A stretch of 64,000 nucleotides of DNA from a virus (Duplodnaviria > Heunggongvirae > Uroviricota > Caudoviricetes): positions 1-64,000 of IMG/VR virus record IMGVR_UViG_3300001598_000046; one strand, written 5' to 3'. The translations under genes were made by a program, and so were the position numbers. Each line of letters opens with the position of its first letter. Position 1 is the stretch's first letter. Positions 4,469-50,900 of the stretch are shown here, in pieces. The notes below the pieces were generated by a model. It searched no databases, was not told the origin of the DNA, and saw nothing but the letters and a program-made list of their open reading frames with translations.

Positions 4469-5287
4469 TCATCTTCTTTCGATATCATTATAATGGTAAA
4501 TTACATCCAATGCAATATTGCGGATGATCCATACCAAATTCTCAAGTGGTCCATCAATTGTTACAGTATAATCATAACGCGAATCACCTTTAAGCAAATC
4601 CAAACCGCCCTTCTTTTTATGTGATGGGCGCTCAACTTTGATAATGATTCCACCATTATCTCTTATATATGTTGTTTCGGTGCGTGATTTGACATCGGCA
4701 AATATCTTATATTGGTTCTCCTCATCAAATAATCCATTATAGAATCGTTTGTTTGCAACCAAAGACTTAACCCAAACATTTGCACCAAATGACCCCTGCA
4801 TTATATGGAGACCAAAATAAATGATCAATTCACGTAAGGTCATATAAGTATCATGTTCAACAATATGCCCTGGCTCATCCTTGACAAAGAGGTAATAATC
4901 ATCCGCAGTATATAAGTTGAGTTTTGAGATATCTTCATAAATAGCATTACTAAAATCTTTCATATTAATTATCATATGATCCTTCAAGTAATCACTATTC
5001 ATATCCTTCATACTTACACCAATGAGCATTGAGAGGAGCATCTTTGGACCATCACCAAAACCCTCAATGATTACGTGGCGACAATCCATATAATTCAAAG
5101 CAGTTTCACCAGCCTCATCAGGTGGAGCCACGATTGCCTCACACCATTGGTCGAAAGATTTTTTGAACTCTTCGGTTGATATCTCATTATCTTTATGTCG
5201 AGTATAGAACTCTATGGCATTTGCCAAGAGATATGATATTGTTGATTTGCCAGCACCACGATGGCCTCGTATTCCGATTATTTTCAT
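4469..5287 (-). CDS. deoxynucleoside monophosphate kinase-like P-loop kinase (T4 gp1-like)
   Basis: N-terminal Walker A MKIIGIRGHRGAGKST resembles T4 gp1 MKLIFLSGVKRSGKDT; C-terminal IIKVERPSH resembles gp1 VIHVVRPG. Confidence 0.55.
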   Translation of the reverse strand: MKIIGIRGHRGAGKSTISYLLANAIEFYTRHKDNEISTEEFKKSFDQWCEAIVAPPDEAGETALNYMDCRHVIIEGFGDGPKMLLSMLIGVSMKDMNSDYLKDHMIINMKDFSNAIYEDISKLNLYTADDYYLFVKDEPGHIVEHDTYMTLRELIIYFGLHIMQGSFGANVWVKSLVANKRFYNGLFDEENQYKIFADVKSRTETTYIRDNGGIIIKVERPSHKKKGGLDLLKGDSRYDYTVTIDGPLENLVWIIRNIALDVIYHYNDIERR

Positions 5288-6542: not shown

Positions 6543-7874
6543 CTAATTTATCTTTGATACCGCATCAAATAATACATCAGGATTAATATTATATTTGACC
6601 TGATTACGCTGCATTTGTTCAATTACTGATTGGAGAATTTGGCTGATACGCGCTATTGATAATCCCTCCTGAGCAGCAATCTCTTTTGGTTCTAATTCAC
6701 GTGGCATACCAATACCAAACTTCTTGAGGAACACTGAACGATCTCTTGGTTTGACACCATCCAATAATTTATCAAGACCATTCTTGAATATATCATATGC
6801 CTCGGCAGCTTCCATATCGGAAACGTGGTCATCCTCCATATTCAATATATCACTAAACTTTGTATCATTATCATCACCGATTGGTGCATCAATATCCAAT
6901 GTCACCTCCTTACGATATGATCCATACTTGAGTTTATCATTATATATATCCGACTTTGGTTTCTTAACCAATCGAGAATAATTATCTATCTCAATCAAGA
7001 TATATGCGCGGATCCACATAAATGCCACAGAGTTGAATGTGGCATTTTTGACATTATGCTTGACCCAAGCAATAACATCATTTCTCATAAATGGTTTCCA
7101 AGTTATTGATGACCAATTTGATGGGATTGGAGTAGCCTCCATATCCTTCAATTCATCATCATTCTTTTGTTCTGTTGATTCGGCAATAGCAATAGATGCG
7201 AAGGCTTTGACAAATTTTTTTCGTATCCCACCATATTTGAGGTATTGTTGGATCTTATTAATAATTTCACCACCATTGGCATTTTCAGGTAATTCCTCCA
7301 ATGCTTCTAACATATCTTCCTTGAGTTTGGCTCTATTTGGATCATATTTTTTGAATGATTCAATCAGGCCATAATTGCCGGCGGAAATAAGTTCCTCCAA
7401 ACTCAAACCCAATCCCTGATATCCTTTGGCAATACTGATAACAGTTTTAAGGTTCATCTCAATAAGTTTATCTCTATTCTCCTCACAATATTCAATATTA
7501 TAGTTATTACCATTCTTATCATATGCCTTACTTACATCACGAAAATATTGTTGTAATGTTCCACGTTCAGCATCAGGGAGCATAGCCTTACTCGTTAATG
7601 CTTCTGCCGCAGAGGATAATGGAATATCATTACTGAGACTATATCTAATAACCGCCGATATATAGAATGATGCATCGGTTTGTGGCTTGAGCTTTATATA
7701 TTTGTTATATGACTCATACAAATCCGGGAGTGAATCAAAAACCGCTTCATTTGTTTTATCTTCATACTCATCAATGAGTTCAACATTGTTCTTCTTTAGA
7801 TTGTCAAACTTCTTCTCAAAAGTTTCATAAACCATCTCATATCTTTCGTATTTTTCATATAACAAATATATCAA
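6543..7874 (-). CDS. RNA polymerase sigma-70 family factor (regions 2 and 4 present, insertion between 2.2 and 2.3)
   Basis: Region 2.2 GNYGLIESFKKYDP; region 2.3/2.4 FNSVAFMWIRAYILIEI..RLVKKP (cf. FSTYATWWIRQAITRAI..RTIRIP); region 4.2 HTH FGIGMP..EIAAQEGLSIARISQILQSVIEQM. Confidence 0.65.
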   Translation of the reverse strand: MIYLLYEKYERYEMVYETFEKKFDNLKKNNVELIDEYEDKTNEAVFDSLPDLYESYNKYIKLKPQTDASFYISAVIRYSLSNDIPLSSAAEALTSKAMLPDAERGTLQQYFRDVSKAYDKNGNNYNIEYCEENRDKLIEMNLKTVISIAKGYQGLGLSLEELISAGNYGLIESFKKYDPNRAKLKEDMLEALEELPENANGGEIINKIQQYLKYGGIRKKFVKAFASIAIAESTEQKNDDELKDMEATPIPSNWSSITWKPFMRNDVIAWVKHNVKNATFNSVAFMWIRAYILIEIDNYSRLVKKPKSDIYNDKLKYGSYRKEVTLDIDAPIGDDNDTKFSDILNMEDDHVSDMEAAEAYDIFKNGLDKLLDGVKPRDRSVFLKKFGIGMPRELEPKEIAAQEGLSIARISQILQSVIEQMQRNQVKYNINPDVLFDAVSKIN

Positions 7875-7889
7875 GTCATTACAAAATAT

Positions 7890-10800
7890 TTAGTCATTAT
7901 TATCGGTTTCTGGAATTGCCTCACAATGAATGACTTCCATATCAACTTCATTATTATCCAAGAAGCCTGCCAACTCAAATGTGTGTTCGTTTGCGCCGAG
8001 TTTTTCGAGTTCATCCTTTTCTTTCCATAAGAGCTCAACTTTCTCAAGTTTTACGATACCCTCCTTATTTGGTCTCGACATTTTGACAAGACACTTGAAT
8101 ATCTCTTCGAATTTCTTACGGATCGTTTCCATTGTATATTGCGCCATATTAATCTTGACTCTATCATCAGATTCTTTGCGAGCATAACTCATTGCATAGT
8201 TACTAATGAAATTCATCACATCCACCTTCTTGACCTTATCATATTGGCAGAAATCATATATATGGTTCATATAGTCTTGAATTGGAATATCCAAACGATG
8301 GTTCTTCTCATTATATACAAGATTAATAAGAAGTTTGATACGTTTGATGGCTGCAAAATTGAATGAACGATTCTTATTTCTACAAAAATCAAAAATATCC
8401 TTAATATCTTCTACCATATATTGTTTTGACATACTTACGAAGATTGGAACCACCTTTTCGAATACTTCAATATTCTTAACAATCATTACCTTTTTATTGG
8501 CATCCTCCTTCCAATCATCTCCCTTACGGATCTCATAAAGACCCTGAAGAACATCGTGGTAGATTGACAAACGATCCTCAGTAATGAGATCCATCAACTC
8601 CTCAACATGTGATGTATTGGCTGCCATTCTATCATCATACGCAAGCTTAACCATATTTTTGAGATCAGAGAATATCTCACCATCCTCAAGCTTGAATCCA
8701 CCCAAATCTTTTGATGTTACCTCATAACCATAAGCCATCATACCCTTCATAAGTACCGGTAATTGCTGGACATATTCTCTATATTTGCGCTCAAAATATA
8801 TGACCTTATAAGCGATTTCATTGAGGTAGTATTTATTTTCCACCTCATTATATTCAATAAATTTATTATCGTGAATGATTGATGCAACCAATGAATTATA
8901 CTTATATTCAATAGGGTTACGTTCGATCATTGAGTTACATAAACGAAGAATGGATTGCACATCTTTTATCTCTTCATCATTCAATTTGAAGTTCATTTGT
9001 CTAAATTTATGGATACTACGACTATTTCCATCTGCATCATTTTTTGAGATATATAGACGAATGAATAGGTCATTTGAACGAAGACGATTGGCAAACTGTT
9101 CAACCTCCTGAGGCATCATCAAATCATCAAAATAGATATTGAATCTGAATTTATCCAATATATCCACACCCACGGATAGATAGTTTGAGCACATAAGAAT
9201 TTGTGTATCCTTAATTGTCTTCTCAAAGTTCACATCATCCATAAACTCCTCGCCAAGATTCGACTTCTTGTAATATTTGAGGTTAATTTCATTGAACTCA
9301 CAATACTCATGTTCCATAAAATATTGGACAGCTGCTTTGACCTGATCGGAGAATAACGTACCTTTATTGGTAGGGAATAGTACGCGCCGACCCTCATATA
9401 TATCTTTAGCCATTGCGCGACACATATGATAGAAGAGATCATTTGGTGTTTCTACCATATTGACGAGGAACTCCTTTTTACGAATATCTTCCTTAATAAC
9501 CTTCAAATGAACTATATCAGGGAAGAATACTGTCTCGCCACTTGGTGTACCCGACATTAATATAATTGGCACTTCAGTATTACGGATCATCTCAACAATT
9601 TTTGACATTACTGGACGATACTCAGATTGGAACATCAAGTGTGACTCATCAATAATGATGTAATCAAAACCATTAGCCTTGATATCCATCAAGTTCATAT
9701 ATGAGAACTTATCAATGGTCATACTAACACCATTTGTCATATCCAAACGTGGTTTGCGCGATCCATACGAATAATACCAATCTTTCTCACCTTCAACCTT
9801 TGATTTGATGGTTGACGTAAATGGCATAACCATAATGACTTTCTTGCCATCTTTGACAAGGCTCTTAATCATCTCAGTCTTACCAACACCGGCACCCGCT
9901 TCAATCAATGTTACTCTCCCAATATTATCAAGCAATTGCCATTTGATATTACCCAAATACTCATCTTTTGTTATATAGAAGGTCTTATTGAATTTTGATT
10001 CATGAATAAGTGTTGGATTATCAATTTTATCAACACTATTGAATAATGAACCTTCATCCAACGAAGTATCCTGAATATTGAGTTTGATCTTGAAGCCGTG
10101 TTGAGTGTTAAGTCTATTCACAGCCCAAACATCAACTGGTTTCTCGTGACGTGCTGCCGTTACACAGTCTGCCTGCAACTCCTTATCCGAAATATTATTC
10201 GAACATACCATACGGAGATACTTATATCCTTGCTCCAATCCATACAACTGCACCAACGTATTGGCCAAACGCCATCTTTCGTGGTGCTTATAGTGAACCT
10301 TATTGTGTGTATCAGTTGTGAGTTCCGCAGCCTCCTTAACATCAATCTTCAAATCATCACCATTATCCTCTTCAAACCATTCCCAACGCTTAAATATCTC
10401 CTTTAGATCAGGATATGTAACCCAATCAATATCAGGATGTCCAAGATCCTCAACATTATCGAAGTTAATATATATGAAATCTTCGAAAAATCTTGTACTG
10501 ATCATTGGATGAGCATCATAACCAATGAATGCACCTTGTTGTGGTTTGAACATTGCAAGGTCCATCCACTTCAATAAATCATCCTTACCAAACCCAAGTC
10601 TTTCCATTGCACTCAGGCAAGATATATATACGAATGAATATTTGTGGCGGAAGTTGGTAAGATATAGGAGTTTCTTACGGTGACCATCCTTTTGATCGGC
10701 CTCTGCCACAGTAATTTTGGTATAGATATGGAGGCCCTTACCTGAGCTTGATAGTGTTGCCCCCAAGAACCAGTTACATTTATGTAGGCAATTGAATATA

Positions 10801-12177: not shown

Positions 12178-13425
12178 TTAGAACGGTGCGTCAGCGTCTT
12201 GTGCCTCATTTGCAGGTGCGGCAGGAGCAGCTGGGGATGTAGCTGCAGGTGCGTCATCAACCTTAATGTTCTTCAAGAGGATAAAGTCAATCCATCTCTG
12301 AACCTTCTCAGAAGTCTCAGCGTCCCAAGGCTTGTAAGCAATTTCGTCTTCGATGTTGATAACCTTTGCCTCATTCTTGAGGTAGTCAAGAGCGATACCT
12401 GTCAACGCGCGAACCTTATTGTAGAGCTCAGTACCCTCCTTGATCACCTTACCATCCTTATCCTTGACAGGACCGGCGATCTTAGCAGCAGCCTCTTCAC
12501 GTTTCTTAGCAGCCTTTGCAGTATCTGCATCCTTACGAGCGTTGGCATACTCTTCGAGGATCTCCATCTGTGCCTCGTCAAAGAGTGGAGTACCATCGAT
12601 TTTGCGAATTGGTTCGAACTCGGTTGCGAAATCGCAGGTAGCGTACGAGATGTTACGATCGCGAACCACTGGGTTTGGATCATCACCTGGCTTGACATTG
12701 ATCTCGAGTGGGTAACCAAGCACCCAGCTCATCAGATTGATAGCCTTCTTGCCCTTTTTCTTGTCCTCCTCTGAAGGATACTGCTTAGCCTCGAGCTTCT
12801 CACGGATATCCTTTGGAAGCTTCATCAGCATAATGCGGCCAACCAATTCAGGTTTGTTCTCATCCTCGAGAATCTGAACCAATACCCAAGAAGATGTGGT
12901 ATTATCGAAGTTCTCCTTCGCATAATTGAGGATCAATTTACCGAGTTCAGTGTTCTTGAACTTAGCGTCCCAAGCCTCTTTACCACGGCCCTCAACGGCA
13001 TTGAACTCTGCGAGCATTGCTGCACGCTTGTTTGCATCGTTTGGCCAAGCCTTCATAGCATAGCGATCTGCGAAACCATCGAGTGCGAGGAACGCCTCAC
13101 TTGATGCCTTGAAGAGTGGGCAGATACGGCGGTTGTCCTTTGTGTCGAGCATACCATTGATCTCGAGAGTTCCATCAGGACCACCCTGGAGATACCAAGC
13201 TGTTTTCTTGATGATTGAACCCTTCGATGTTGGGTTGTACGGATTGAAGATCACTCTGACCTTTGCGCGGTAGATACCATCCTCAGACTTTGAGTCACGA
13301 GGGTGAGTTTTGTACACGTTAGGGTTAGTTTTTTGAGAATCGTTGTTCTCGAATGGATTGCCACCCATAATGTCGCCATCCATCATTGCGTCAAGTACGT
13401 CTTGCTGCTGTTCTTTGTTTGCCAT
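12178..13425 (-). CDS. candidate single-stranded DNA-binding protein (SSB-type acidic C-terminal tip)
   Basis: 415 aa; Pro/Ala-rich flexible linker PAATSPAAPAAPANEAQ followed by terminal DADAPF (cf. E. coli SSB DDDIPF, T7 gp2.5 acidic tail ending in F); locally higher GC. Confidence 0.4.
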   Translation of the reverse strand: MANKEQQQDVLDAMMDGDIMGGNPFENNDSQKTNPNVYKTHPRDSKSEDGIYRAKVRVIFNPYNPTSKGSIIKKTAWYLQGGPDGTLEINGMLDTKDNRRICPLFKASSEAFLALDGFADRYAMKAWPNDANKRAAMLAEFNAVEGRGKEAWDAKFKNTELGKLILNYAKENFDNTTSSWVLVQILEDENKPELVGRIMLMKLPKDIREKLEAKQYPSEEDKKKGKKAINLMSWVLGYPLEINVKPGDDPNPVVRDRNISYATCDFATEFEPIRKIDGTPLFDEAQMEILEEYANARKDADTAKAAKKREEAAAKIAGPVKDKDGKVIKEGTELYNKVRALTGIALDYLKNEAKVINIEDEIAYKPWDAETSEKVQRWIDFILLKNIKVDDAPAATSPAAPAAPANEAQDADAPF

Positions 13426-13518: not shown

Positions 13519-13956
13519 TTATTTAGAGCCCCCATCAAATTCTATGGATTTGAATAGATTGATGACGGCCTTTTCTATGGATTTGAATAGATTGATGACG
13601 GCCTTATATATTGGTTTAATTGGAATCTGCAATAGGTGTAGTGTAATGAACAATACGTTAAACATTGGCACCCACCTCAAAAGAACCGCTACCTCCCAAA
13701 AAGTACAAGCAGATTTTTCTATAACATCATCTGATGAGAATACCTCGTGTAGCGTATATCTGCGACCACACTTCCTCCAGTATGTTAACCAGCAATAAAA
13801 ACTCACAAGTAAGCCAAATACAGGGCTTGTAGCCAGTACTCCAAGGATAATTAAGATTTGTTCTATTGTCATAGTGATATATTTTTGGTACAATATAATA
13901 TATAAAGTATTGTGAGAGTTTTTAGTTCTTACAATTGCAATGTTTTTGCCTGTCAA
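13519..13956 (-). CDS. membrane protein with C-terminal in-frame 11-aa tandem repeat
   Basis: 145 aa; TM-like SPVFGLLVSFYCWLTYW; C-terminus ...KAVINLFKSIEKAVINLFKSIE... Confidence 0.45.
   Translation of the reverse strand: MTGKNIAIVRTKNSHNTLYIILYQKYITMTIEQILIILGVLATSPVFGLLVSFYCWLTYWRKCGRRYTLHEVFSSDDVIEKSACTFWEVAVLLRWVPMFNVLFITLHLLQIPIKPIYKAVINLFKSIEKAVINLFKSIEFDGGSK
13543..13608. repeat. perfect 2 x 33-bp direct tandem repeat
   Basis: tctatggatttgaatagattgatgacggcctt(t/a) twice; in-frame within CDS 13519..13956. Confidence 0.8.
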
Positions 13957-14380
13957 GTGCTTCCATCTCCGCTCTTACACACTCGGGACGTTTATACCAT
14001 TCTTCCAATGAAATTTTCTCCACACTTTTCTCATCTCGTTCAACCTGTCTTTCATGACCTTTGGCCCAATCATACTCCTCAGTATCAGGATTCCAAATAC
14101 ATTTCCACATATTATCCTTAAATCTCTCATTGCGAGTATCCATATTGGCGAACCAATCATAGTTCTTGGCAAGAAGACGAGCGGCATATACAATCTGCTG
14201 CCAATCATCATAGTCCAACGTATATCCGGGTTGCATATGATCAAGGCACTTAAATGCGTTGTATGCATTCAGGTCGCAGATCCCACAAACACCGTGATAA
14301 CGGAGCTCAATTGATTTATCCTGACAGTTTACGCCACCGGCTGTTCCATTGAAGACTGGAGTATCGTAAAATTTTTCCAT
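13922..14380 (-). CDS. hypothetical Cys-rich protein
   Basis: 152 aa with CGICDLNAYNAFKC and C-terminal HCNCKN. Confidence 0.4.
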   Translation of the reverse strand: MEKFYDTPVFNGTAGGVNCQDKSIELRYHGVCGICDLNAYNAFKCLDHMQPGYTLDYDDWQQIVYAARLLAKNYDWFANMDTRNERFKDNMWKCIWNPDTEEYDWAKGHERQVERDEKSVEKISLEEWYKRPECVRAEMEALDRQKHCNCKN

Positions 14381-14694
14381 TATTCGAAATTATTTTTATC
14401 GTTTGATTTGACTTTGATATTCTTGAGGCTATCAATAATCAACATTGCTATACAACATATTGGTAAGATTGTAATTACACAAATCATTACGATAAAATTA
14501 CCAACAGGTATATATCTGTAATAACTTAGATCTGAAGCCACCGGATGGTCATATTGATCATAGATTACTTTGAACAATAAATCATATAATGAGTACTCAT
14601 CTTGATGCCGCCAATATTCAATCCAACACCATATAATACTGAATATTACCGGGATTACATACCCAATCGATATTATTAATCCAATTGTTTTCAT
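14380..14694 (-). CDS. membrane protein
   Basis: 104 aa, two hydrophobic helices (N-terminal and ICVITILPICCIAMLII). Confidence 0.4.
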   Translation of the reverse strand: MKTIGLIISIGYVIPVIFSIIWCWIEYWRHQDEYSLYDLLFKVIYDQYDHPVASDLSYYRYIPVGNFIVMICVITILPICCIAMLIIDSLKNIKVKSNDKNNFE

Positions 14695-15839
14695 ATCGCT
14701 CCTTCGAATATTTCTTCTATATCATTATCTTGTTCGAGGAGTGTCTTGTAGGACCCTCTTATATAATCCATATTAACCACACGATACTCTTGAGTATTCA
14801 TAATGGTTGTTATGGTCTCAGGGATTACTGCTTCATTCAACCATACCAACTTGACGTTATATTCAATCATTTCCTTGATCTTTGTAATAGTCAAATCAGC
14901 ATCTGCAAACTTTTTCATATTTATTATATAGTTTGCAATCTCATCTTGATGGTTGATGATATCATTTATTGTCTTGATATTAAGATTTGTAGTAAGCTTC
15001 TCAAAATCTTTTGGACCGATACCAAATTTGCGACCATTTTTGAATTTACGAGCGATTGATTGAATATTATCACCCTTATCACCACAAATCACCTTATCAT
15101 TAATGACTTCATTTGGATCGGTGTACATTACTGAGCCGGCAATCTCCTCAAGTTGTACCTGAGTTGCCGGTTTATATGTTGGTGGTGTCATCAAGAAATC
15201 GAGATCTTCAGGATCAGGAACAATCTCTTCAAGACTCTTTGGTAGTGCCAAAGTATATATATTATTGCGTTCGGAGAGCCAAGCCGTAAACGCACCATCC
15301 ACACATTGTACCAATTGACGAAGGTCATTATCGATAGACCATACTACACAATTAACTCCTTGTGCATTAAGTACTCTCGACCAATACCATATCCAGTCAT
15401 CACCTTCAATATTATATTGGGTACAAGTGGTGACGCCAGCCTCATTACAAGACTTTGCCAATTCCTTCAATGCACCAAATGCATAATCCCAATCAACATC
15501 CAACGCATCATTATTACGATTTCCTTTATATGTAATATCTCCAAGTTGCTTTGGGATGGCCAATTGTTTACGCCACGATCCACCATCAGTAACAAGGACA
15601 ATATTATCGATGAATGGCATTTTATTGATAATCTTATTGATTGATGTTGCCATCATATCCTTGAGAGTTTCTTTCGCTGCATTGAGTCTTGCTTGAGACG
15701 AACCTTTTGCAAATCGCATTGAGATATCTTTACCTGAAAAAATTCTACTCATTAATAGCCAGTTACCATCAATGAGAAGTGTACAATTATTTGGTTTCAT
15801 ATTATGATTTTTGTTATGGATTAATATACGCTTTTTCAT
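14691..15839 (-). CDS. 5'-3' exonuclease / flap endonuclease (T4 RNase H-like)
   Basis: N-terminal LLIDGNWLLMSR (cf. Pol I 5'-exo LLLVDGSSLAFR), H3TH motif GDKGDNIQSI (cf. GDxSDNIPGV). Confidence 0.75.
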   Translation of the reverse strand: MKKRILIHNKNHNMKPNNCTLLIDGNWLLMSRIFSGKDISMRFAKGSSQARLNAAKETLKDMMATSINKIINKMPFIDNIVLVTDGGSWRKQLAIPKQLGDITYKGNRNNDALDVDWDYAFGALKELAKSCNEAGVTTCTQYNIEGDDWIWYWSRVLNAQGVNCVVWSIDNDLRQLVQCVDGAFTAWLSERNNIYTLALPKSLEEIVPDPEDLDFLMTPPTYKPATQVQLEEIAGSVMYTDPNEVINDKVICGDKGDNIQSIARKFKNGRKFGIGPKDFEKLTTNLNIKTINDIINHQDEIANYIINMKKFADADLTITKIKEMIEYNVKLVWLNEAVIPETITTIMNTQEYRVVNMDYIRGSYKTLLEQDNDIEEIFEGAI

Positions 15840-15899
15840 ACAAATCTTTATCAGTAGAAATCAAAAACTTATTATAGAGATATACAAATTCAATATAAT

Positions 15900-17531
15900 A
15901 TGAACTATCGCAATATCAAGAATGTTGGTATGTTATATGAATCAGGTCTAATTCAGCAACCAACACTTAATGAAAAAAAGGCTGAGCCACACCCATCAAA
16001 AGAAAATGAGGAGGCGAAAGTAAAACCACAAGCTGAACATTTTGATGTTGTATATGCTGATGATATCAAAACATATACAAATATCTTCAAGCATATCATT
16101 GTATTCACCAATGATCGTGATGAGAAGAATAATAAAACTCTCAAGAATATCTACGAGGCAGTTGATAATCTTAAGAAAGATAAATGTGAAATTATTCCCG
16201 AAGTTCACGTATTCGTTGCTGCTGAGATGGATGCCGATGAGCGCGAGGAAGAGATCAAAATCACTGATGGTGATGAAACCTTTACCATAAAGGATGAGTC
16301 AAACCTCGATACTCTTATCTTTGCCCGTCTTGGTGTACAGGGAGAGGATCAATGTGAGCATATCGTTCAATTATTGCAAGATCGTGGATTCCTCGTATTG
16401 AATCCAGTTAAGTATTCTGCATTAGCCTGCGATAAGTATGAGTCAGCTGTATTGTTCCAAAAGGGTGAGATTCCTCAACCAAACTTTACTCTTATGACAA
16501 AGGATATCCTTTATGATAAGAAGATATATGATAAGGCGATGAAAGAGGTTTATCCTGAATGGAATCCCGATGATCCTGATAAGAATGAGGAGCTTTCATT
16601 CGTTGTTAAGATTCTTGATGGTCACGGTGGAACAGGTGTTATGATGATTGATGGTAAGAAAATCCTTGCTGCATTCCAACTTATATTTGCAATAGACCCT
16701 GAACGCCGTTTGATTATCCAAAAGAAGGAGGAGGCTGATGGTGGTGATATTCGTGTTCACGTTCTTACACTTCGTGATAAGCAAGTTATTCTTGCTTGTA
16801 TGAAACGTGTTAAGCTTGGTGGTGATTTCCGTTCGAATGTATCTCTTGGTGCACAAGCAGAACCAGTTAAACTCACTCCTGAACAGGAACAGATTGCATT
16901 GAAGACCGCGCAACTCTCACATCTCCCTTGGTGTGCTGTTGATATTATGCCATTGGTTAAGGGATCAAATAAGGAGATTGGTGATAATGTTGTTCTTGAG
17001 ATCAATGCCAGCCCTGGAACAGATGGTATTTCTGATGTAATGAAGGAGAATTTCATTAATATATTACTCAACGAACTTGATGATCCATCACAATTTATGT
17101 TGCAGGATAAAACTGCAGGATTCATAGAATCGGTATCAATCAATTTTGGAAATACCACAAAAGATTTCCTTGCAAAACTTGATACCGGTAACTCCACAAC
17201 AGCATGCTGTCTTGAGGTTGGAGAGTTCTCTGAGAAGAATGGTCAAATCCATTTCAAGATGGATGGAAAAGAGGTATCATTTAAGAAGACAGGTAAATCT
17301 ATTGCGACTGCTGGAGAGCAGAGTTATGAGCGTCCTGTTATTACTGTTCCTGAAATTACTGTTGGTCTTCGTAAAGTTAAGAACGTCCAAATCAGTATCG
17401 TTAAGAGTCGCGAAAATAAAACAACAAACTGCTTGATTAACAGAGATGTATTGAGTAAGCTTGGATATGTTATCCACCCAAATAAGGCTCATATCCTTAC
17501 AAAAGAAATGGAGAAAGTAAAGATTATCTAA
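15900..17531 (+). CDS. RimK-family ATP-grasp alpha-L-glutamate ligase fused to RimB-like retropepsin (DUF785) domain
   Basis: KILDGHGGTGV, DGGDIRVHV, GDFRSNVSLG, TPEQEQIALKTA, VLEINASPGTDGI all parallel E. coli RimK (GDFRSN, TPQEREIAIKAA, VMEVNASPGLEGI); C-terminal AKLDTGNSTTA..ERPVI..LINRDVL matches RimK-associated retropepsin-like family. Confidence 0.85.
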   Translation: MNYRNIKNVGMLYESGLIQQPTLNEKKAEPHPSKENEEAKVKPQAEHFDVVYADDIKTYTNIFKHIIVFTNDRDEKNNKTLKNIYEAVDNLKKDKCEIIPEVHVFVAAEMDADEREEEIKITDGDETFTIKDESNLDTLIFARLGVQGEDQCEHIVQLLQDRGFLVLNPVKYSALACDKYESAVLFQKGEIPQPNFTLMTKDILYDKKIYDKAMKEVYPEWNPDDPDKNEELSFVVKILDGHGGTGVMMIDGKKILAAFQLIFAIDPERRLIIQKKEEADGGDIRVHVLTLRDKQVILACMKRVKLGGDFRSNVSLGAQAEPVKLTPEQEQIALKTAQLSHLPWCAVDIMPLVKGSNKEIGDNVVLEINASPGTDGISDVMKENFINILLNELDDPSQFMLQDKTAGFIESVSINFGNTTKDFLAKLDTGNSTTACCLEVGEFSEKNGQIHFKMDGKEVSFKKTGKSIATAGEQSYERPVITVPEITVGLRKVKNVQISIVKSRENKTTNCLINRDVLSKLGYVIHPNKAHILTKEMEKVKII

Positions 17532-17537
17532 AATAAT

Positions 17538-18068
17538 ATGAAAGTATTTCTTGGAGGCACCTGTAATGAAAGCACTTGGCGTAATGAATTGATACCAATG
17601 CTTGACAAATTTGGAATCGAATACTTCAATCCAGTCGTTGACGATTGGACACCTGAATGTCAGGAGGAGGAAAGAGTTCAAAAGAATTTATTATGTGATG
17701 TTCATCTTTATGTGATTACTCCACGATTAACTGGATTCTTTTCCATCGCGGAGATTATCGAGAGTTCATTCAACCAACACAAAACCACGTTGGTATATAT
17801 AATGGATGAGGATAACGTCACGTATGCAGAACAAGGTATTCGTAAACCCGGCATCGCTGAAACGAAAGTTTGGACCATTCCACAAAAGAAGTCGTTGGTA
17901 GCTGTAAGTGAGATGGCCGAACACCACGGAGCAATTATATGTTATAGCCTTGAACATATAGTGAAGGAGTTGGAGGAGGTTAAGAAGTTCCAAAATAATA
18001 TGAAGCAAATTCTTCATAAGCGTGACTTCTCAACACCACAACATAATCTACAAAAAGAAGTAAAATAG
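17538..18068 (+). CDS. nucleoside 2-deoxyribosyltransferase-like (DNPH1/RCL-like) protein
   Basis: MKVFLGGTCNES..., later CDVHLYVITPRLTGFFSIAEII fits the flavodoxin-like NDT/DNPH1 pattern; moderate. Confidence 0.4.
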   Translation: MKVFLGGTCNESTWRNELIPMLDKFGIEYFNPVVDDWTPECQEEERVQKNLLCDVHLYVITPRLTGFFSIAEIIESSFNQHKTTLVYIMDEDNVTYAEQGIRKPGIAETKVWTIPQKKSLVAVSEMAEHHGAIICYSLEHIVKELEEVKKFQNNMKQILHKRDFSTPQHNLQKEVK

Positions 18069-18069
18069 T

Positions 18070-18330
18070 ATGACCTTTCGTGAATTTATGAGATTGGCCC
18101 ATTCAGAAAATGGAGCACCAAGCTCGAAACGTATTTATGGTGGGATCGCGGTGGTTGCTGTTCAACTATGTCTGATGGCTGCAGTAGTATTGGCATTCGT
18201 TAACCACGCAGAACTATCAACGGTATTGAAGGAGTTGTTGGAGGTTGATTTGATTACCGGAGCATCATTACTTGGATTGAATAGTGTTACTAAGATATTC
18301 GAGAAAAAAGAAAAAGGAACTCAAGAGTGA
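18070..18330 (+). CDS. small membrane protein
   Basis: 86 aa, hydrophobic IYGGIAVVAVQLCLMAAVVLAFV. Confidence 0.4.
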   Translation: MTFREFMRLAHSENGAPSSKRIYGGIAVVAVQLCLMAAVVLAFVNHAELSTVLKELLEVDLITGASLLGLNSVTKIFEKKEKGTQE

Positions 18331-18342
18331 GTTCCTTTTTTT
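18316..18342 (+). terminator. rho-independent terminator
   Basis: GGAACTCA agag TGAGTTCC then TTTTTTT; stem overlaps stop codon of 18070..18330. Confidence 0.6.
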
Positions 18343-18555
18343 ATAACCAAATTGTCCAACCACATTTATTACATCGATGCAAAACCTCTCCACCCTAATC
18401 CATTACACCTTCATCAATGAGGCAACCACCACAAATCTTTTTATGGATGAATACGGCCAACATCTTGATACAAGCCACCACAACATATAATCCAAACCAA
18501 ATTGCAAATATGAGTGGTACTATCCAAATTCATGTTATCATATTTCGTTGCATTA

Positions 18556-20188: not shown

Positions 20189-20644
20189 CTATAGTTGATT
20201 GATGGTTTTTTCAGTCAAAATTTTGAATTGGAAACCACGATCTGCACAATATTTCTTAGCTGCAACCCACTTACACATATTCTTTCGATATTCATTCCAA
20301 AGCCAACCATTTTCATTTATTGGTCTCTTACATTGTGTCATTGGTTTGATCTCCACGATACATCGTGTACCATCCTGATACTCTATGAGAAAATCAGGAT
20401 TATATGTATGCTGCGTACCATCATATAATATATATGGTATGGTGACACACTCGGACCCCCAGTATTTTATGGATGGTTCTCTCTCACACCAGTAAGCAAA
20501 TTTCCGTTCCCAACTTGATCTAAATATAATCAAATCATTCGAAATATTACCTTGAAACAATTTCTTACAGGAACGAGGGTCAAGATAACCTTGATTGGTC
20601 CAAGCTCTTGACCCTTTATTTGGTTTGAGATTTTTGATATCCAT
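20189..20644 (-). CDS. PD-(D/E)xK nuclease-fold protein
   Basis: YNPDFLIEYQDG...IVEIKP is a textbook PD-(D/E)xK core; 151 aa. Confidence 0.5.
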   Translation of the reverse strand: MDIKNLKPNKGSRAWTNQGYLDPRSCKKLFQGNISNDLIIFRSSWERKFAYWCEREPSIKYWGSECVTIPYILYDGTQHTYNPDFLIEYQDGTRCIVEIKPMTQCKRPINENGWLWNEYRKNMCKWVAAKKYCADRGFQFKILTEKTINQL

Positions 20645-32748: not shown

Positions 32749-35748
32749 TCAGAAATCGAACAAAAGTAATTCGCGGCTACCATCCAATTTGAATTTCTGC
32801 ATTCCCATCGCTTCGTGACATATTCGATTCAATGGATCGAGGAAGAACTTCTCGAACATTATACCACGATCAACTGGACAATACTCGTCAGCCCATTTTG
32901 GATAATTTCGTGCCTGATATGCAAATGGAACATAATCTCCCTTTTCAGAAATCTTCTTACCGAGGTATATTTTGCATTTTCCACCATAAATTGGATCGCC
33001 GGCAAGATGGTTATTTTCGCGAATGGTATTATATGTCATTAATGCCTTTGGACCTGTCATTGCACCCGGCCACCAGTAAATGATATCATTCTTCTTATCA
33101 ACTGTCATTGCACCAACAATCTTTTTCGAAGATCCATCACGCAATGCTTTGGTATTCTTTGGATCATCATAATCTTCTTTAGTTGCTGAATATTTTGCGA
33201 ATCCATTAATACCTTGATTTGCACATATATCATCTATTGGTGCATTATAGTAACCAAGTTTTTCCTTCTGTACCATAATATTAATATGTTCCCAAAGATG
33301 CTGGTCATTCTCAGCCTCCAACATACCACGAATAACTCTCTTCAATCCACCACGAACATATTTTGGATATGAGGCTTTGATCATTTCCAAACCCTTTGTT
33401 TTCATTGGGAGCGAATCGTCATCAAAATATTTGCCATCTTTCCAAAGGAGAATTTGACAATATCTCTTCTTAACATTCAACCACGCACCACGAAGATTAA
33501 CTGTTTCCAACTCGAACTTTTGTACGGACTTAACGTGGCGAGACGTAAAATATTCATCCATAAATTCCTCGTTATGTTTATCGAGGTAATCTGTATTGAG
33601 GTGAACGATAATATCCAATTTCTCACGGCGAGTCATTTGGTCATATCCTTCAATTGTACTCAAAAGACTCTTGTAAGACATATACAATGAATCGGTATCA
33701 CCATATACAATTTGTACAAGGTTCTTTCCGCTCTTCAAGATCTCCTCAACTTTCTTGAGATTAACCTTCAATCCCCACTTAGCTTGCCATTCACCCATCT
33801 TAGCCCAATTCTCATTCCAATGCCCTGGTATGTGGTGTTCCATCTTATGAATAAGATTACGAGCCTCACCGGTGATATCGCGAGCCACATTAATATTGAA
33901 CCAATAGAATGCGATGTGGCTGGAACCACCATACATACTATTACCCATAAGTTTCATCGCTTGCTCCTTACAAGTATAGAATACAATCTCATCTGCAAGT
34001 ACTCTCTTGAACTCCAATAACTCTTCCCGAGTCATCGCAAGGAGATCATTATAATCACGGATCGTATAACCAACCTCAGCCATCGCATCAACCATATTTT
34101 GTGCATATGGTTTTGATGTTGGTGTGATACCTTTGAGGATATGTTCAATATCCAACATCATAAATGCATCAAGATCCTTTGCAAGATATTTTGATATATT
34201 TCGTGTAGCCTTCAACTGAGCCTGTACCCTCTTAAATGAATAACTCTTATCATTGTGGTATACGTGGCCATTGACACTCACAAAATAATTTGGATCTTTT
34301 CGATATGGTTCGAGAGCGGCATCATCAATAAATGTTCCAATATATTCTCCATACTCCAACTCCTTCGTTTTCTTATATGCGTTGGCATTCGTATATACCA
34401 CAGGGCCGACAATAATATATTGAGGGTTTCCAGTTGGTGTGAGTGGAGCATAGATATATTTGTCGAGTTTCTTTTGATCGTAGAAACAACCAATAAAATT
34501 CTCGAATGATAGGTTGCAAGTGATGATTGTTGATGGATATAGAGATGCAAAGTCGTTACAAGTTACAAAATCCCATAACCCCGGTATTGGTTTGGCTACA
34601 TATGCACCCATCAATCTACCACGATCGCGATCTTTCTTATCCTCGAATACAATCTTATACCCCTGATCACGGAAATCCTTCCAAGTAAGTGCCTCCGAAA
34701 TCGCAATCTTCGAAAAAGCATCCTGAATACGAATACCACAATACAACGCCTGCATATACATCATCTCCATTGTCTTGTAACGATAATTGATTAATTGTAC
34801 AAGGATGGAGTCAATTGCATTGTAGAATACGTAACGTCTAAAGTCAGTCTCATAAAGGATCTCAAGATCACCATCATACTCAATCTTATGAGCCTCCAAA
34901 CCCGGAGTTTCACTTGATATATACTCCAATGATGTTGATTCCTTATCTGTAAGACCGGACATATCGAAATGATCAATAACATCCTTCATATCAAAGATTG
35001 GAGTATGAACTGGCATTGGTACATAGTAATCCTCCAATTTAGTATTGGTGAATTTCTTTTGTACCATTTGGTGACAAATACTTGAACCAGTTACTGAAAG
35101 ATTTGGAAAGAACTCACGTGTACGAGTGGTGAGATATTGCCAGTCGTATTCAATATTGTTCCAACCTGAAAGAATAGGCACTTTCGCGACAATACCTTTA
35201 TAAAAGTATTCAAGCATATCCTTTTCTTTTGGATAATATTGATACTTAAATTCAGGTAATGGGAGATTAAGTGTATGGAAGAATGCAAGTTTGTTAAGAA
35301 AGTCGGTGATTTGATCCTGGATCCATTTGATATCATCCTCGCATAAATATTTATCACCCATTACAAGTGATTTGAGCTCAGGAGATGCAACTGAAATTGT
35401 GTGGACTGGCATATTTGCCACATTCGCCTCAACAAACTCTCGGTCATCACGCATTTTCGTCTCTATATCGAACGTATACAAACGAGGTGATGTACGACCA
35501 TTGAATAATTTTTTGTACTTAGAGTCAAGCTCTTCGAAAAATGTTCGAATGTCGAAACGAGAAGGATTATCAGTTAACATCTCATCACATCTTGCTCCAT
35601 CCCAGTTGGTATATTTTCCATTGGGAGTGAGATAATATGACTTAAATTTATTGATATTGAAGTCCATTATAGACTTCATTCCCTTCTCGTTAATATATGA
35701 AACGGATAGCTTTCCCTGCTTTTTGATAAATTTGTAATCGAGTAGCAT
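32749..35748 (-). CDS. family B DNA polymerase with 3'-5' exonuclease domain
   Basis: Exo I YTFDIE; motif A NDFASLYPS; motif B KLMGNSMYGG; motif C YGDTDS; 999 aa. Confidence 0.9.
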   Translation of the reverse strand: MLLDYKFIKKQGKLSVSYINEKGMKSIMDFNINKFKSYYLTPNGKYTNWDGARCDEMLTDNPSRFDIRTFFEELDSKYKKLFNGRTSPRLYTFDIETKMRDDREFVEANVANMPVHTISVASPELKSLVMGDKYLCEDDIKWIQDQITDFLNKLAFFHTLNLPLPEFKYQYYPKEKDMLEYFYKGIVAKVPILSGWNNIEYDWQYLTTRTREFFPNLSVTGSSICHQMVQKKFTNTKLEDYYVPMPVHTPIFDMKDVIDHFDMSGLTDKESTSLEYISSETPGLEAHKIEYDGDLEILYETDFRRYVFYNAIDSILVQLINYRYKTMEMMYMQALYCGIRIQDAFSKIAISEALTWKDFRDQGYKIVFEDKKDRDRGRLMGAYVAKPIPGLWDFVTCNDFASLYPSTIITCNLSFENFIGCFYDQKKLDKYIYAPLTPTGNPQYIIVGPVVYTNANAYKKTKELEYGEYIGTFIDDAALEPYRKDPNYFVSVNGHVYHNDKSYSFKRVQAQLKATRNISKYLAKDLDAFMMLDIEHILKGITPTSKPYAQNMVDAMAEVGYTIRDYNDLLAMTREELLEFKRVLADEIVFYTCKEQAMKLMGNSMYGGSSHIAFYWFNINVARDITGEARNLIHKMEHHIPGHWNENWAKMGEWQAKWGLKVNLKKVEEILKSGKNLVQIVYGDTDSLYMSYKSLLSTIEGYDQMTRREKLDIIVHLNTDYLDKHNEEFMDEYFTSRHVKSVQKFELETVNLRGAWLNVKKRYCQILLWKDGKYFDDDSLPMKTKGLEMIKASYPKYVRGGLKRVIRGMLEAENDQHLWEHINIMVQKEKLGYYNAPIDDICANQGINGFAKYSATKEDYDDPKNTKALRDGSSKKIVGAMTVDKKNDIIYWWPGAMTGPKALMTYNTIRENNHLAGDPIYGGKCKIYLGKKISEKGDYVPFAYQARNYPKWADEYCPVDRGIMFEKFFLDPLNRICHEAMGMQKFKLDGSRELLLFDF

Positions 35749-50255: not shown

Positions 50256-50900
50256 TTATGCTTTATGCTTGATTCTAAATTGTTTCCAATAATTGAGAAT
50301 TGCCGCGCGTGTACTCTTTCGGAAGACTCCCTCCGTGAATACTGCGCGAACCCAATCTTTTGGAGGAACAACGCGGATGGCACCGGTCAAATTTGGTATA
50401 TACATACGCACTCCAAATGCCAAACCAGTATTCTCCAACTGCTGCATCAACCACTCATAATCGAATCTTGACATTTCTTTATTCAATCCAGTCTCCCAAG
50501 TCTTCAGGTACATTGGTTTCCAAATCTCCATAATACGATCCATAATTTGGTATCGAATACGTGGTGGATAATAATGGATATTGAATCCAATGATGCGTGG
50601 TTCACCCTTTTGATTCTTAAATGTACCAAAGAAGATCGTACAAGGTTTTGCATCATAATATTCAAGTTCCTCCTTTGTTGCTGGCTCAAGATAATTGAAG
50701 TATATAAGTTGGCCCGGCATAACATCACGGGGTCCAGTAACCTCGAGATTCTCCTCAAGATATTTACGTTGGCGTCTATCACGGAGCTCAGGAGAATGCT
50801 TATATTCTTTGAATGCCCTTATCTCTCGTATGAGGGAATAATTTTTATCCGGTTTCTCACTTTTTGGAGTAACCTTTTTTTCATTACTGGTTGTTGCCAT
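50256..50900 (-). CDS. hypothetical protein downstream of terminase
   Basis: 214-aa basic ORF overlapping terL stop by 17 nt. Confidence 0.45.
   Translation of the reverse strand: MATTSNEKKVTPKSEKPDKNYSLIREIRAFKEYKHSPELRDRRQRKYLEENLEVTGPRDVMPGQLIYFNYLEPATKEELEYYDAKPCTIFFGTFKNQKGEPRIIGFNIHYYPPRIRYQIMDRIMEIWKPMYLKTWETGLNKEMSRFDYEWLMQQLENTGLAFGVRMYIPNLTGAIRVVPPKDWVRAVFTEGVFRKSTRAAILNYWKQFRIKHKA

Follow-up and report, generated by a model that had tools for sequence, protein, structure and literature searches.

A phage-encoded fusion of a RimK-like ATP-grasp ligase and a RimB-like retropepsin domain in a single polypeptide

To our knowledge, RimK and RimB are alone among bacterial systems in both adding and removing poly-glutamate tails, and through them the ribosome is tuned, and we know of no protein substrate of RimK other than the 30S ribosomal protein bS6 (RpsF). 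In Pseudomonas, RimK is an alpha-L-glutamate ligase and RimB is a retropepsin-like poly-Glu endopeptidase, both acting on RpsF/bS6 (PMC11957791). RimB cuts internal and terminal runs of at least five Glu, and its D31, which lies in the DTG motif, is essential for proteolysis, since D31E abolishes cleavage (PMC11957791). Poly-Glu is the specific substrate of both RimB and the related RloA peptidases (PMC11957791, PMC11957051). An earlier note on the DNA studied here treated RimB as a protein that bacteria encode as a separate partner of RimK. This is part of the picture; a fused form, the RimBK hybrid, is also encoded in bacteria, as in Desulfotalea psychrophila DP2392, and occurs mostly in Flavobacteriales and Rhodobacterales (PMC11957791). 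The isolated RimB domain of bacterial RimBK is proteolytically active, showing that the fused arrangement can work, and bacterial RimBK displays protease activity in vitro but no S6 glutamylation (PMC11957791). No description of a phage RimK-RimB fusion was found in our literature searches.

Such a fusion is encoded in the window, by which we mean the whole 64,000-nucleotide stretch of viral DNA that was analysed. The phage, a large one from gut or rumen, is T4-like, with TerL, PolB, gp32-like, gp2-like, gp15-like and baseplate wedge genes. It has no near relative among cultured phages: its TerL comes closest to those of Tenacibaculum phage PTm1 and Sphingomonas phage PAU, with which it shares about 31% identity. 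The features of the locus are as follows.

15840 to 15899, no strand: divergent intergenic region of 60 bp between the exonuclease gene and the fusion gene
15900 to 17531, plus strand: RimK-RimB ("RimKB") fusion, complete ORF of 543 aa plus stop (translation; homologues)
15900 to 16037, plus strand: N-terminal extension, residues 1-46 (AlphaFold and alignment of close homologues)
16038 to 17084, plus strand: RimK-like ATP-grasp ligase, residues 47-395, with its three subdomains complete (Pfam, NCBIfam, Foldseek)
17109 to 17477, plus strand: RimB-like/DUF785 (PF05618) retropepsin-like aspartic peptidase domain, residues 404-526 (profile, AlphaFold, Foldseek)
17181 to 17192, plus strand: catalytic motif D428-T429-G430-N431 (DTGN in the translation; invariant in three family alignments)
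17478 to 17528, plus strand: conserved C-terminal tail, residues 527-543, PNKAHILTKEMEKVKII (column conservation; predicted unstructured)
17538 to 18068, plus strand: nucleoside 2-deoxyribosyltransferase-like gene, 176 aa (Nuc_deoxyri_tr2 PF15891, 44.8 bits against a cutoff of 30)
18070 to 18330, plus strand: 86-aa protein with a single transmembrane helix, ending ...KGTQE (ORF listing)
18316 to 18346, plus strand: intrinsic terminator, hairpin and T-run, closing the plus-strand unit (read from the sequence)

The fusion ORF occupies exactly 15900-17531 on the plus strand according to the ORF listing and the translation, and a short linker joins the ligase domain to the peptidase domain. The ATP-grasp assignment, which the earlier note had made by eye, was recovered by profile: Pfam RimK PF08443 matched residues 231-385 at 78.8 bits (E 5.2e-22), above its gathering threshold of 21. 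The family model TIGR00768 (rimK_fam) aligned with residues 112-384 at E 1.9e-25, its 89.7 bits lying under the NCBI curated cutoff of 143.4, and the S6-glutamate ligase equivalog NF007764 gave 54.8 bits, far under its cutoff of 331. Given these two scores, homology alone does not justify the name 'S6-glutamate ligase'. The cofactor ligase model MptN scored 88.7 bits, on par with rimK_fam, and GSH-S_ATP also matched. These scores do not by themselves assign an amino-acid or acceptor specificity. The best matches among the sequences of solved structures were the RimK proteins of Pseudomonas and E. coli, with about 22% identity to RimK, and every string that had been likened to E. coli RimK (GDFRSN, DIR, TPQEREIAIKAA and VMEVNASPGLEGI) was found in the alignment with 5zct/4iwx. 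An AlphaFold model of the fusion (pLDDT 84.7) was compared with known structures by Foldseek. The top 11 matches were all RimK, led by 5zct, 7qys, 4iwx and 7qyr, with a target-normalised TM of 0.78-0.83, and were followed by LysX/ArgX.

We aligned 39 diverse fusions, spanning 22-100% identity, and found K237, D283, R285, R303, R311, N313, D348, E367, N369 and R143 invariant. By alignment, the first nine correspond, in this order, to K141, D187, R189, R203, R211, N213, D248, E260 and N262 of RimK_PA, in which R189 and N262 touch the terminal Glu (PMC10092738). The acceptor-binding R143 is the putative counterpart of RimK R64, as read from the local motif without alignment. The absence of key ATP-grasp catalytic residues had been named beforehand as an outcome that would undo the assignment; on alignment, all ATP-, Mg- and phosphate-binding residues are conserved, as are the acceptor residues. 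RimK H215/R216 are replaced by S315/L316 in the fusion protein.

The peptidase domain was not recovered by direct searches. PF05618 (Zn_protease/DUF785, now 'RimB-like') was not matched by the window sequence in Pfam, even at E <= 10; the C-terminal 143 aa searched directly against Pfam gave noise only (DUF7713, CNRIP1, NosL), and a profile of the C-terminal domain had no meaningful match among PDB sequences. The wider family supplied the connection. A profile built from 18 family members and run against 1.84 billion representatives retrieved 146 proteins, and PF05618 was independently matched by 65 of the 108 non-close hits scanned (best E 1.3e-30); the homologues YerA41_066 of Yersinia phage YerA41 and Mosig_00005 of Pelagibacter phage Mosig lay narrowly above its cutoff of 27 (29.0 and 28.0 bits, respectively). 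The AlphaFold model of the C-terminal domain alone (pLDDT 87.1) retrieved the Legionella DUF785 structure 2pma first in a Foldseek search of the PDB (E 7e-8), then the RloA retropepsin-like peptidases 9g58/9g59 and then HIV-1 protease, so that the likeness to 2pma and RloA was seen via structure and not by PDB sequence search. In BFVD, the top matches were standalone phage proteins labelled 'ATP-dependant zinc protease'. These matches place the domain in the retropepsin-like beta-barrel fold. The string LAKLDTGNS is invariant in the family, and D428 is the catalytic Asp, equivalent to RimB D31, with K-L-D428-T-G-N taken as an instance of the hydrophobic-hydrophobic-D-T/S-G motif; the usual form of the motif in the RimB-like family is DTGA, versus DTGN here. 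Thus the DUF785 assignment, for which a failed profile search had been set as the test, came close to being lost on the direct Pfam search and was retained through the family profile and the structure. Taken together, independent evidence from profiles, structure and conservation supports the central proposal of the earlier note that one phage-encoded chain comprises a RimK-type ATP-grasp ligase and a RimB-like retropepsin, with the catalytic residues intact.

The homology search yielded over 1900 proteins; the best-scoring 120 are full length and share 72-100% identity with the window protein; an identical protein (P0001) lies on a JGI/Logan contig. The family is viral, with 19 IMG/VR loci on contigs of up to 240 kb versus only two short MAG contigs in a set of 185,579 species genomes. 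A megablast search with the fusion gene found nothing among 50,697 phage records. At the protein level, the search for fusions in related phages that the earlier note had recommended was successful: the order of RimK first and RimB second is seen throughout the window family, in YerA41, in Mosig and in marine T4-like phages, as well as in most of those among the 146 profile hits that exceed 430 aa, and the fusion is kept in more than 100 close relatives. The lineage covers gut or rumen jumbo phages, marine T4-like phages, a pelagiphage and YerA41, and has kept both active sites. The mean column conservation of the C-terminal tail is 0.87, versus 0.74 for the peptidase domain, and the pLDDT is low at the extreme C-terminus. 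Judged from the recurrence of the fused order, selection on the fused state is strong.

We compared the phage protein with described systems. It shares with Pseudomonas RimK and RimB (rimABK) both catalytic domains, the same active-site residues, the RimK fold (TM of about 0.8) and the DUF785/retropepsin fold. It differs in being a single, phage-encoded polypeptide with about 22% identity to RimK, in falling under the NCBIfam RimK cutoffs, in lacking the RimA/c-di-GMP component and in adding the N-terminal extension and the conserved C-terminal tail. Bacterial RimBK is likewise a single chain, but it is chromosomal rather than viral, and its RimB domain is N-terminal whereas that of the phage form is C-terminal. 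Among the 146 hits of the phage C-terminal-domain profile, none longer than 430 aa had this domain at the N-terminus, although five hits of 276-334 aa did. Given the reversed domain order and the lack of long N-terminal-domain hits, we weakly infer that the phage fusion is a separate lineage that arose independently of bacterial RimBK.

Phage proteins annotated as 'ribosomal protein S6 glutaminyl transferase' (PHROG 2599) also have a RimK-like ATP-grasp, and the window protein matched this group weakly, at E 5.6e-09. Its members, from the cyanophages S-RIM8, S-RIM12 and S-CAM8 and the Methylophilales phage Melnitz, are annotated by homology only; the tblastn matches to these phages cover the ligase region only, and these proteins thus appear to be without the peptidase domain. 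YerA41 gp066 and Mosig gp5 have the same RimK-then-RimB-like order. They align with window residues 138-528 and 138-543, respectively, at about 27% identity, and are 70-80 aa shorter at the N-terminus than the window protein. They are annotated as 'structural protein' and 'putative glutathione synthetase', respectively, and the fusion is unremarked in the records and in the YerA41 papers.

Given the two domains and their conserved residues, the fusion is probably a self-contained poly-glutamate writer and eraser in one chain that acts during infection. At the expense of ATP, the ligase domain would attach L-glutamates singly and in alpha linkage to a protein C-terminal carboxylate, or alternatively to free glutamate to give poly-alpha-glutamate. 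The peptidase domain would cut poly-Glu tails and may also stimulate the ligase. Retropepsins need dimerisation; the peptidase presumably dimerises, and RimK-type tetramerisation could bring copies of the chain together, so that the two activities would jointly set the length of an acidic tail. More tentatively, the modified protein may be a host protein reached early in infection, with bS6 (RpsF) as the leading candidate and a bias in translation as the outcome. Glutamylation of host S6 would be expected from family membership only, and since bacterial RimBK lacks S6 glutamylation in vitro, a fused enzyme need not target S6. In one relative, the fusion gene lies about 3 kb from a phage-encoded gene for ribosomal protein S21; bS21 sits near bS6 on the 30S subunit. 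Taken as a whole, the reading of a two-enzyme chain that sets acidic tail length, likely on a host protein, is the one we favour, at somewhat better than even confidence. The replacement of H215/R216, the direct miss of PF05618 and the DTGN motif count against it, as do the NCBIfam scores under their cutoffs, the equally high MptN score and the in vitro result on bacterial RimBK. If the fusion is used in this way, polyglutamylation may be a viral means of host control, and the phage-specific family would suggest a new layer of virus-host control. The fusion is also a tractable case in which to look for the targets of single-chain RimK-RimB enzymes, bacterial RimBK included.

The near-equal MptN and rimK_fam scores and the GSH-S_ATP match would fit a different chemistry, because the RimK relatives MptN, CofF and GshB ligate amino acids to small molecules. 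The ATP-grasp domain might then ligate an amino acid to a cofactor or to a glutathione-like or nucleotide-linked compound, with the C-terminal domain regulatory or oligomerising; in a variant, it and the deoxyribosyltransferase-like neighbour might jointly modify nucleotides or DNA. The Nuc_deoxyri_tr2-like gene does adjoin the fusion gene, and GenBank annotators have labelled homologues 'glutathione synthetase'. YerA41 has a hypermodified thymidine, and genes for ribonucleotide reductase and dUTPase are found close to its homologue. However, the YerA41 modification is described as oligosaccharide-like, the fusion gene goes unmentioned in the 2022 YerA41 paper, and the deoxyribosyltransferase-like neighbour is not conserved in relatives. 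The catalytic DTG is invariant in the fused peptidase across about 25% identity, which argues for a peptide or protein substrate; the best structural matches, RimK and then LysX/ArgX, all act on protein C-termini, and the acceptor-chain residues R143 (equated with R64 without alignment), R285 and N369 do not vary. We therefore regard a small-molecule acceptor as quite improbable.

The substrate could also be a phage protein rather than host S6: during assembly or maturation, the enzyme might cleave or elongate acidic tracts on prohead scaffold or core proteins, or on another virion or replication protein. RimB cleaves internal as well as terminal Glu runs (PMC11957791), and in the marine T4-like clade, where the fusion gene lies in the head/tail module, contig L004 encodes a small prohead-core-like ORF ending ...QEEE and a gp22 scaffold with an EEEEEE tract. 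Poly-Glu tracts were sought in the window as candidate substrates and rejected, as no ORF in the 64 kb has a run of at least four Glu or of at least six acidic residues, and few end in Glu (an RNA ligase-like protein ending ...NPEE and the 86-aa membrane protein ending ...GTQE). The position of the fusion gene also varies between clades. A phage substrate is in our judgement improbable.

Two distant relatives are triple fusions in which an Acb1-like (anti-CBASS) 2H phosphoesterase shares one chain with the RimK and RimB-like domains. Such an association would be expected if the enzyme served counter-defence, disabling a host immunity protein through a change at its C-terminus, for example a protein that needs C-terminal conjugation. 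The family's restriction to phages and the fast variation of its N-termini and neighbourhoods would also fit this idea. Nevertheless, the case is one of guilt by fusion, with 2 of about 150 clusters, and only one of the two triple fusions passes the Acb1 Pfam cutoff (31.5 versus 27 bits). A defence-related context was not seen within the window, and we know of no defence protein that is a RimK substrate. This role is thus very improbable.

The N-terminal extension raises a further possibility, which would extend the favoured writer-eraser reading rather than replace it. AlphaFold predicts a helix at residues 9-15 and a disordered charged linker at residues 23-45 (pLDDT below 50). An [LIV]-x-E island at residues 23-25 (LNE here) is present in at least 117 of the 120 close homologues, while the columns around it are only 38-55% conserved, and we know of no comparable extension in bacterial RimK. 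The extension might be a T4-type capsid-targeting propeptide, cut after [LIV]-x-E by the prohead protease; the enzyme would then be carried in the head, enter with the DNA and act before phage gene expression, like T4 Alt. T4 internal proteins have the targeting sequence MKTYQEFIAE with a single cut by gp21 (PMC3012670, PMC5694885). The likeness to T4 internal proteins and Alt would be one of analogy only, without homology: the shared elements would be an amphipathic leader at the N-terminus, with [LIV]-x-E at its end, and an enzyme that modifies proteins and arrives with the DNA.

Similar N-termini occur in fusions of the wider family (MERFNEFLNE, MERFTEYLIE, MKLFNNFLEE, MKTFKETLIE, MQNFSNFLSE, and ...FKNYLEE in Mosig). 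The motif [FYWLM]xx[FYWLM][LIVFM]xE was found in 12 of 47 non-redundant fusions when their first 35 aa were scanned, compared with 1% of windows taken elsewhere in these proteins; 2000 shuffles averaged 1.3 and never exceeded 6. The motif was defined post hoc, after inspection of the data. The window protein fails the strict form, having only LYE (12-14) and LNE (23-25). Two marine T4-like contigs have the fusion gene flanked by terL (gp17) and the sheath gene (gp18), with the genes for the portal, S77 prohead protease, scaffold and gp23 located downstream of it, but in the window it sits outside the head module among replication genes (gp32-like, RNase H-like). An S77 protease gene was not found within the 64-kb window, and in one relative a ClpP-like gene takes its place. 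The label 'structural protein' given to the YerA41 homologue is one that we take to derive from the virion LC-MS/MS study. That virion proteome comprises 63 proteins, polymerases and helicases included (PMC7354516), and in the YerA41 GenBank record the alpha subunit of ribonucleotide reductase is labelled particle-associated. Since replication enzymes are among the proteins detected, detection in that preparation is not specific. On this evidence, a capsid-targeting role of the extension is unlikely, if still worth serious weight. It is a little more doubtful that the fusions of T4-like and jumbo phages are packaged, leader-cleaved and injected to rewrite poly-Glu tails on bS6 or a defence protein; if true, polyglutamylation would be a phage-delivered host-takeover modification comparable to ADP-ribosylation by T4 Alt. 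The cultured phages YerA41 and Mosig make the leader idea checkable.

A faint echo of a MKSLYESLL leader in the fusion protein (MLYESGLI) had also been pointed out. This leader is carried by four ORFs, and the likeness of the strings is real, but its match to the fusion protein is not significant (E 6.6), and homology is not supported.

Upstream of the fusion gene, positions 14691-15839 of the minus strand encode an RNase H-like 5'-3' exonuclease, and relatives keep the divergent arrangement of the two genes. A promoter scan upstream of the fusion gene gave only weak sigma-70-like matches, no more than in shuffled sequence. Downstream, the deoxyribosyltransferase-like gene and the small membrane protein are present as the earlier note had described them, the latter with one hydrophobic helix and no match in the family profile scans. 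Its 'one plus-strand unit' is correct for the window, where these genes are co-directional and a terminator is present, but the unit is not conserved: the deoxyribosyltransferase-like gene is absent or replaced in two relatives (L007 and L009). The two genes were considered as operon or functional partners of the fusion and rejected, because relatives carry other downstream genes. The terminator consists of a GGAACTCA-AGAG-TGAGTTCC hairpin and then T7. In the scan it was called on the minus strand; given that the hairpin is symmetric, the terminator is probably bidirectional.

Both active sites of the fusion protein, one RimK-type and one RimB-type, are intact, and the pair is kept together across deep viral divergence. 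A single chain had been claimed from the sequence, and one ORF with exactly the proposed coordinates was found. The features of the locus were as follows:

15900-17531, plus strand: fusion gene, one long ORF, 543 aa (ORF listing)
17181-17192: catalytic motif DTGN (translation of the window)
14691-15839, minus strand: RNase H-like 5'-3' exonuclease gene, divergent from the fusion gene (PF02739, PHROG 107)
17538-18068, plus strand: Nuc_deoxyri_tr2-like protein, co-directional, first downstream (PF15891, 44.8 bits)
18070-18330, plus strand: 86-aa membrane protein, single helix, second downstream (ORF listing)
18311-18346: terminator hairpin GGAACTCA-AGAG-TGAGTTCC, then T7, ending the plus-strand unit (direct reading of the sequence)

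The plus-strand unit proposed for the fusion gene and its two neighbours stood in part: the genes are co-directional and closed by the hairpin and T7, but the neighbours are replaced in relatives of the window phage. The fusion gene is divergent from the RNase H-like gene in three relatives too (L007, L008, and L009), and the downstream genes encode 157, 127, and 113 aa in L007 and 240 aa in L009; L008 is uninformative on this point, as its contig stops 158 bp past the fusion gene. Since L007 and L009 have other downstream genes, neither the deoxyribosyltransferase-like gene nor the membrane-protein gene counts as a conserved partner. The terminator, also called on the minus strand by a terminator scan, is preceded by an A-run and followed by a T-run. 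Given these flanking runs, it can, judging from sequence, work on both strands, between convergent units.

The RimK ATP-grasp assignment of the ligase half was recovered by Pfam RimK (PF08443; residues 231-385, E 5.2e-22) and NCBIfam rimK_fam (residues 112-384, E 1.9e-25). The top sequence matches among solved structures were Pseudomonas RimK (7qyr, 7qys) and E. coli RimK (5zct, 4iwx), and every E. coli RimK motif string quoted in the earlier note was found in the 5zct/4iwx alignment. The AlphaFold model of the fusion, built from a 39-sequence alignment of diverse fusions, had a mean pLDDT of 84.7 and a pTM of 0.79. Its 11 best PDB matches were RimK chains over the full RimK length (target-normalised TM 0.78-0.83), with ArgX and LysX ranking after them. 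The ATP-grasp catalytic residues were invariant across the 39 sequences (22-100% identity). Invariant residues included K237, D283, R285, R303, R311, N313, D348, E367, and N369, whose RimK_PA counterparts are, in the same order, K141, D187, R189, R203, R211, N213, D248, E260, and N262 (HMMER alignment to 7qyr, in which chain numbering equals published numbering). RimK_PA R189 and N262 are in contact with the terminal Glu of the bound poly-Glu chain (PMC10092738), and the invariant R143, paired by local motif alone, is probably the equivalent of the acceptor-binding R64. Given the conserved catalytic and acceptor residues, the ligase appears catalytically competent, with a RimK-like acceptor site.

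The fusion protein scored below the NCBI curated cutoff of rimK_fam (89.7 vs. 143.4 bits) and far below that of the S6-glutamate ligase equivalog (54.8 vs. 331 bits), and the cofactor ligase MptN model matched it as well as rimK_fam did (88.7 bits). S315 and L316 stand in place of RimK H215 and R216. The MptN and GshB scores, together with the Nuc_deoxyri_tr2-like neighbour, suggest a small-molecule or nucleotide-modifying ligase. However, a small-molecule ligase leaves the conserved peptidase active site unexplained, and the neighbour is not conserved.

The RimB/DUF785 assignment of the C-terminal part failed by direct Pfam match: the C-terminal 143 residues were unrecognised even at E <= 10, which could count as refutation, the earlier note having itself named failed profile searches as grounds for it. 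The assignment is restored by three independent lines: transitive homology, profile, and structure. First, window residues 138-543 aligned by tblastn to gp5 of the Pelagibacter phage Mosig and residues 138-528 to gp066 of the Yersinia phage YerA41, and the C-terminal domains of these homologues reached the PF05618 gathering score of 27 (28.0 and 29.0 bits, respectively). In addition, profile A1, made from the C-terminal domains of 18 members of the window's own family, was run with HMMER on 1.84 billion cluster representatives and found 146 proteins (E <= 1e-3). Leaving close relatives aside, 65 of the remaining 108 matched PF05618 independently (best E 1.3e-30), and a few more matched other clan-AA aspartic protease families. 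Finally, the AlphaFold model of the domain alone (pLDDT 87.1) was almost entirely beta-strand with one short helix. The top PDB structures for it were 2pma, a Legionella DUF785 protein, and the Pseudomonas RloA retropepsin-like peptidases 9g58/9g59, with dozens of HIV-1 protease entries ranking next; the best matches in a viral structure library were small phage proteins that stand alone and bear the old PF05618 name, 'ATP-dependant zinc protease'. The active-site motif K-L-D428-T-G-N was invariant in all alignments made. RimB D31, the counterpart of D428, is essential for cleavage (PMC11957791), and poly-glutamate is cleaved specifically by both RimB (PMC11957791) and RloA (PMC11957051).

The C-terminal tail, PNKAHILTKEMEKVKII (17478-17528, residues 527-543), is predicted to be unstructured, and its conservation is 0.87 vs. 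0.74 in the peptidase domain (120 homologues). Distant fusions end in acidic tails instead (...QETE, ...KIDE, ...FEDE, and ...NDDSDH), which makes self-modification or autoinhibition conceivable.

The protein database held >1900 homologues of the fusion protein, the best 120 of which were full length, with 72-100% identity, on contigs up to 215 kb. Family-specific C-terminal patterns were found on 19 IMG/VR viral contigs (up to 240 kb). Among 185,579 prokaryotic species (one genome each), just two contigs had them, both short (2.7-3 kb) and from rumen/cecum MAG bins; phage fragments binned by mistake would be the simplest explanation. The window fusion family is therefore viral. Homologous fusions, which the earlier note had proposed to seek in related phages, are present: the RimK-then-RimB-like order recurs in YerA41, in Mosig, in marine T4-like contigs, and in most A1 profile finds >430 aa. 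This order is the reverse of that in the published bacterial hybrid RimBK, in which RimB is N-terminal. Given that no find >430 aa within the 146 had an N-terminal RimB-like domain, we infer that the phage fusion is a lineage separate from the bacterial hybrid and most likely arose as an independent fusion event. Two proteins from the search of cluster representatives, P0223 (631 aa) and P0246 (618 aa), have an N-terminal Acb1-like (anti-CBASS) 2H phosphoesterase, then RimK, then the RimB-like domain. A counter-defence role is hinted at by these triple fusions, a case of guilt by association alone.

RimK, a tetramer, attaches alpha-linked glutamates to RpsF at its C-terminal Glu and also produces free poly-alpha-Glu; RimB, a dimeric retropepsin, takes glutamates off and stimulates RimK (PMC11957791, PMC10092738). 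By analogy, the phage chain would by itself both write and erase poly-alpha-glutamate tails, and RimK-type tetramerisation would plausibly unite the C-terminal domains for dimerisation. Host bS6 would be the default candidate target. Against it counts the hybrid RimBK, which did not glutamylate S6 in vitro (PMC11957791). The failed S6-ligase equivalog test counts against it as well. On another fusion-bearing phage contig (L011), a ribosomal protein S21 gene (4704-4937) lies ~3 kb upstream of the fusion gene (8001-9401), and a tRNA-synthetase-like gene is nearby. bS21 is located near bS6 on the 30S subunit. Action on phage scaffold or core proteins is suggested by the marine T4-like contig L004, on which a small prohead-core-like ORF (12632-12838) ends in ...QEEE and the gp22 scaffold has an EEEEEE run, both potential RimK/RimB-type substrates; however, no such tracts were found among the window ORFs.

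The fusions have an N-terminal extension relative to RimK. In the wider family, N-termini often resemble the T4 capsid-targeting sequence, MKTYQEFIAE (PMC3012670, PMC5694885): MERFNEFLNE, MERFTEYLIE, MKLFNNFLEE, MKTFKETLIE, MQNFSNFLSE, and, in Mosig, ...FKNYLEE. The leader motif [FYWLM]xx[FYWLM][LIVFM]xE, built from the same sequences and thus a post hoc test, was present near the start (first 35 residues) in 12 of 47 non-redundant fusions. Elsewhere in the same proteins, 1% of windows had it, and 2000 shuffles of the N-termini averaged 1.3, with 6 at most. This enrichment may point to virion packaging and injection, which we consider rather unlikely for the window protein. In two marine T4-like contigs (L004 7285-8718 and L012 6671-8107), the fusion gene lies between terL (gp17) and tail sheath (gp18), with portal, S77 prohead protease, scaffold, and major capsid genes downstream; the window fusion gene, in contrast, sits in replication genes rather than head genes, and no S77 protease gene was found within the 64-kb window. 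YerA41 gp066 is annotated 'structural protein', presumably from the published virion LC-MS/MS, but that proteome is broad (63 proteins, polymerases and helicases included; PMC7354516), and the ribonucleotide reductase alpha subunit is also marked particle-associated in the YerA41 GenBank record. The window protein has a predicted helix at 9-15, then a predicted disordered stretch at 23-45, and [LIV]-x-E at residues 23-25 is kept in at least 117 of 120 close homologues, with neighbouring columns just 38-55% conserved. The packaging evidence is weaker for the window protein than for the wider family.

Four window ORFs of 63-287 aa share an MK[ST]LYESLL... leader of ~22 aa:

56111-56974, plus strand: leader ORF
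56971-57162, plus strand: leader ORF
1354-866, minus strand: leader ORF
786-310, minus strand: leader ORF

Past the leader, only the two minus-strand ORFs are paralogous (36% identity over 92 aa). The M-K-[ST]-x-x-E-x-[LI] pattern of the shared leader resembles T4 MKTYQEFIAE, and the plus-strand pair lies directly 3' of a neck/head-closure-like gene (54397-56109). The four possibly form a family of internal proteins targeted to the capsid.

Phage RimK-like genes already bear the homology-based annotation 'ribosomal protein S6 glutaminyl transferase' (PHROG 2599), RimB is already known as a retropepsin, and the bacterial RimBK hybrid was published in 2025. Full-text literature searches yielded no account of the phage RimK-RimB fusion, its reversed domain order, or the N-terminal leader. 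The cultured examples are annotated 'structural protein' (YerA41) and 'putative glutathione synthetase' (Mosig), and with these two phages both hypotheses, on function and on packaging, can be put to a direct test.

The window phage has a T4-like gene set, with a gp2-like DNA end protector, baseplate wedge, neck protein, gp15-like protein, dNMP kinase, and sigma factor in addition to the first four genes below; the last four rank as accessory genes:

50884-52746: large terminase
32749-35748: family B DNA polymerase
12178-13425: gp32-like SSB
45754-47253, minus strand: RNA ligase-like protein, C-terminus ...NPEE
20189-20644, minus strand: TnsA-like endonuclease N-domain protein, kept beside the locus in relatives
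6543-7874, minus strand: sigma-70 region 2 protein
59551-60159, minus strand: GNAT acetyltransferase

A nucleotide search of 50,697 phage records gave zero matches to the fusion gene. Tenacibaculum PTm1 and Sphingomonas PAU, phages of 220 kb, had the closest terminases (~31% identity). In the 215-kb relative L007, a ClpP-like protease gene (1753-2382) adjoins the gp32-like gene, and the matching position in the window (13519-14694) holds small unrelated ORFs instead.
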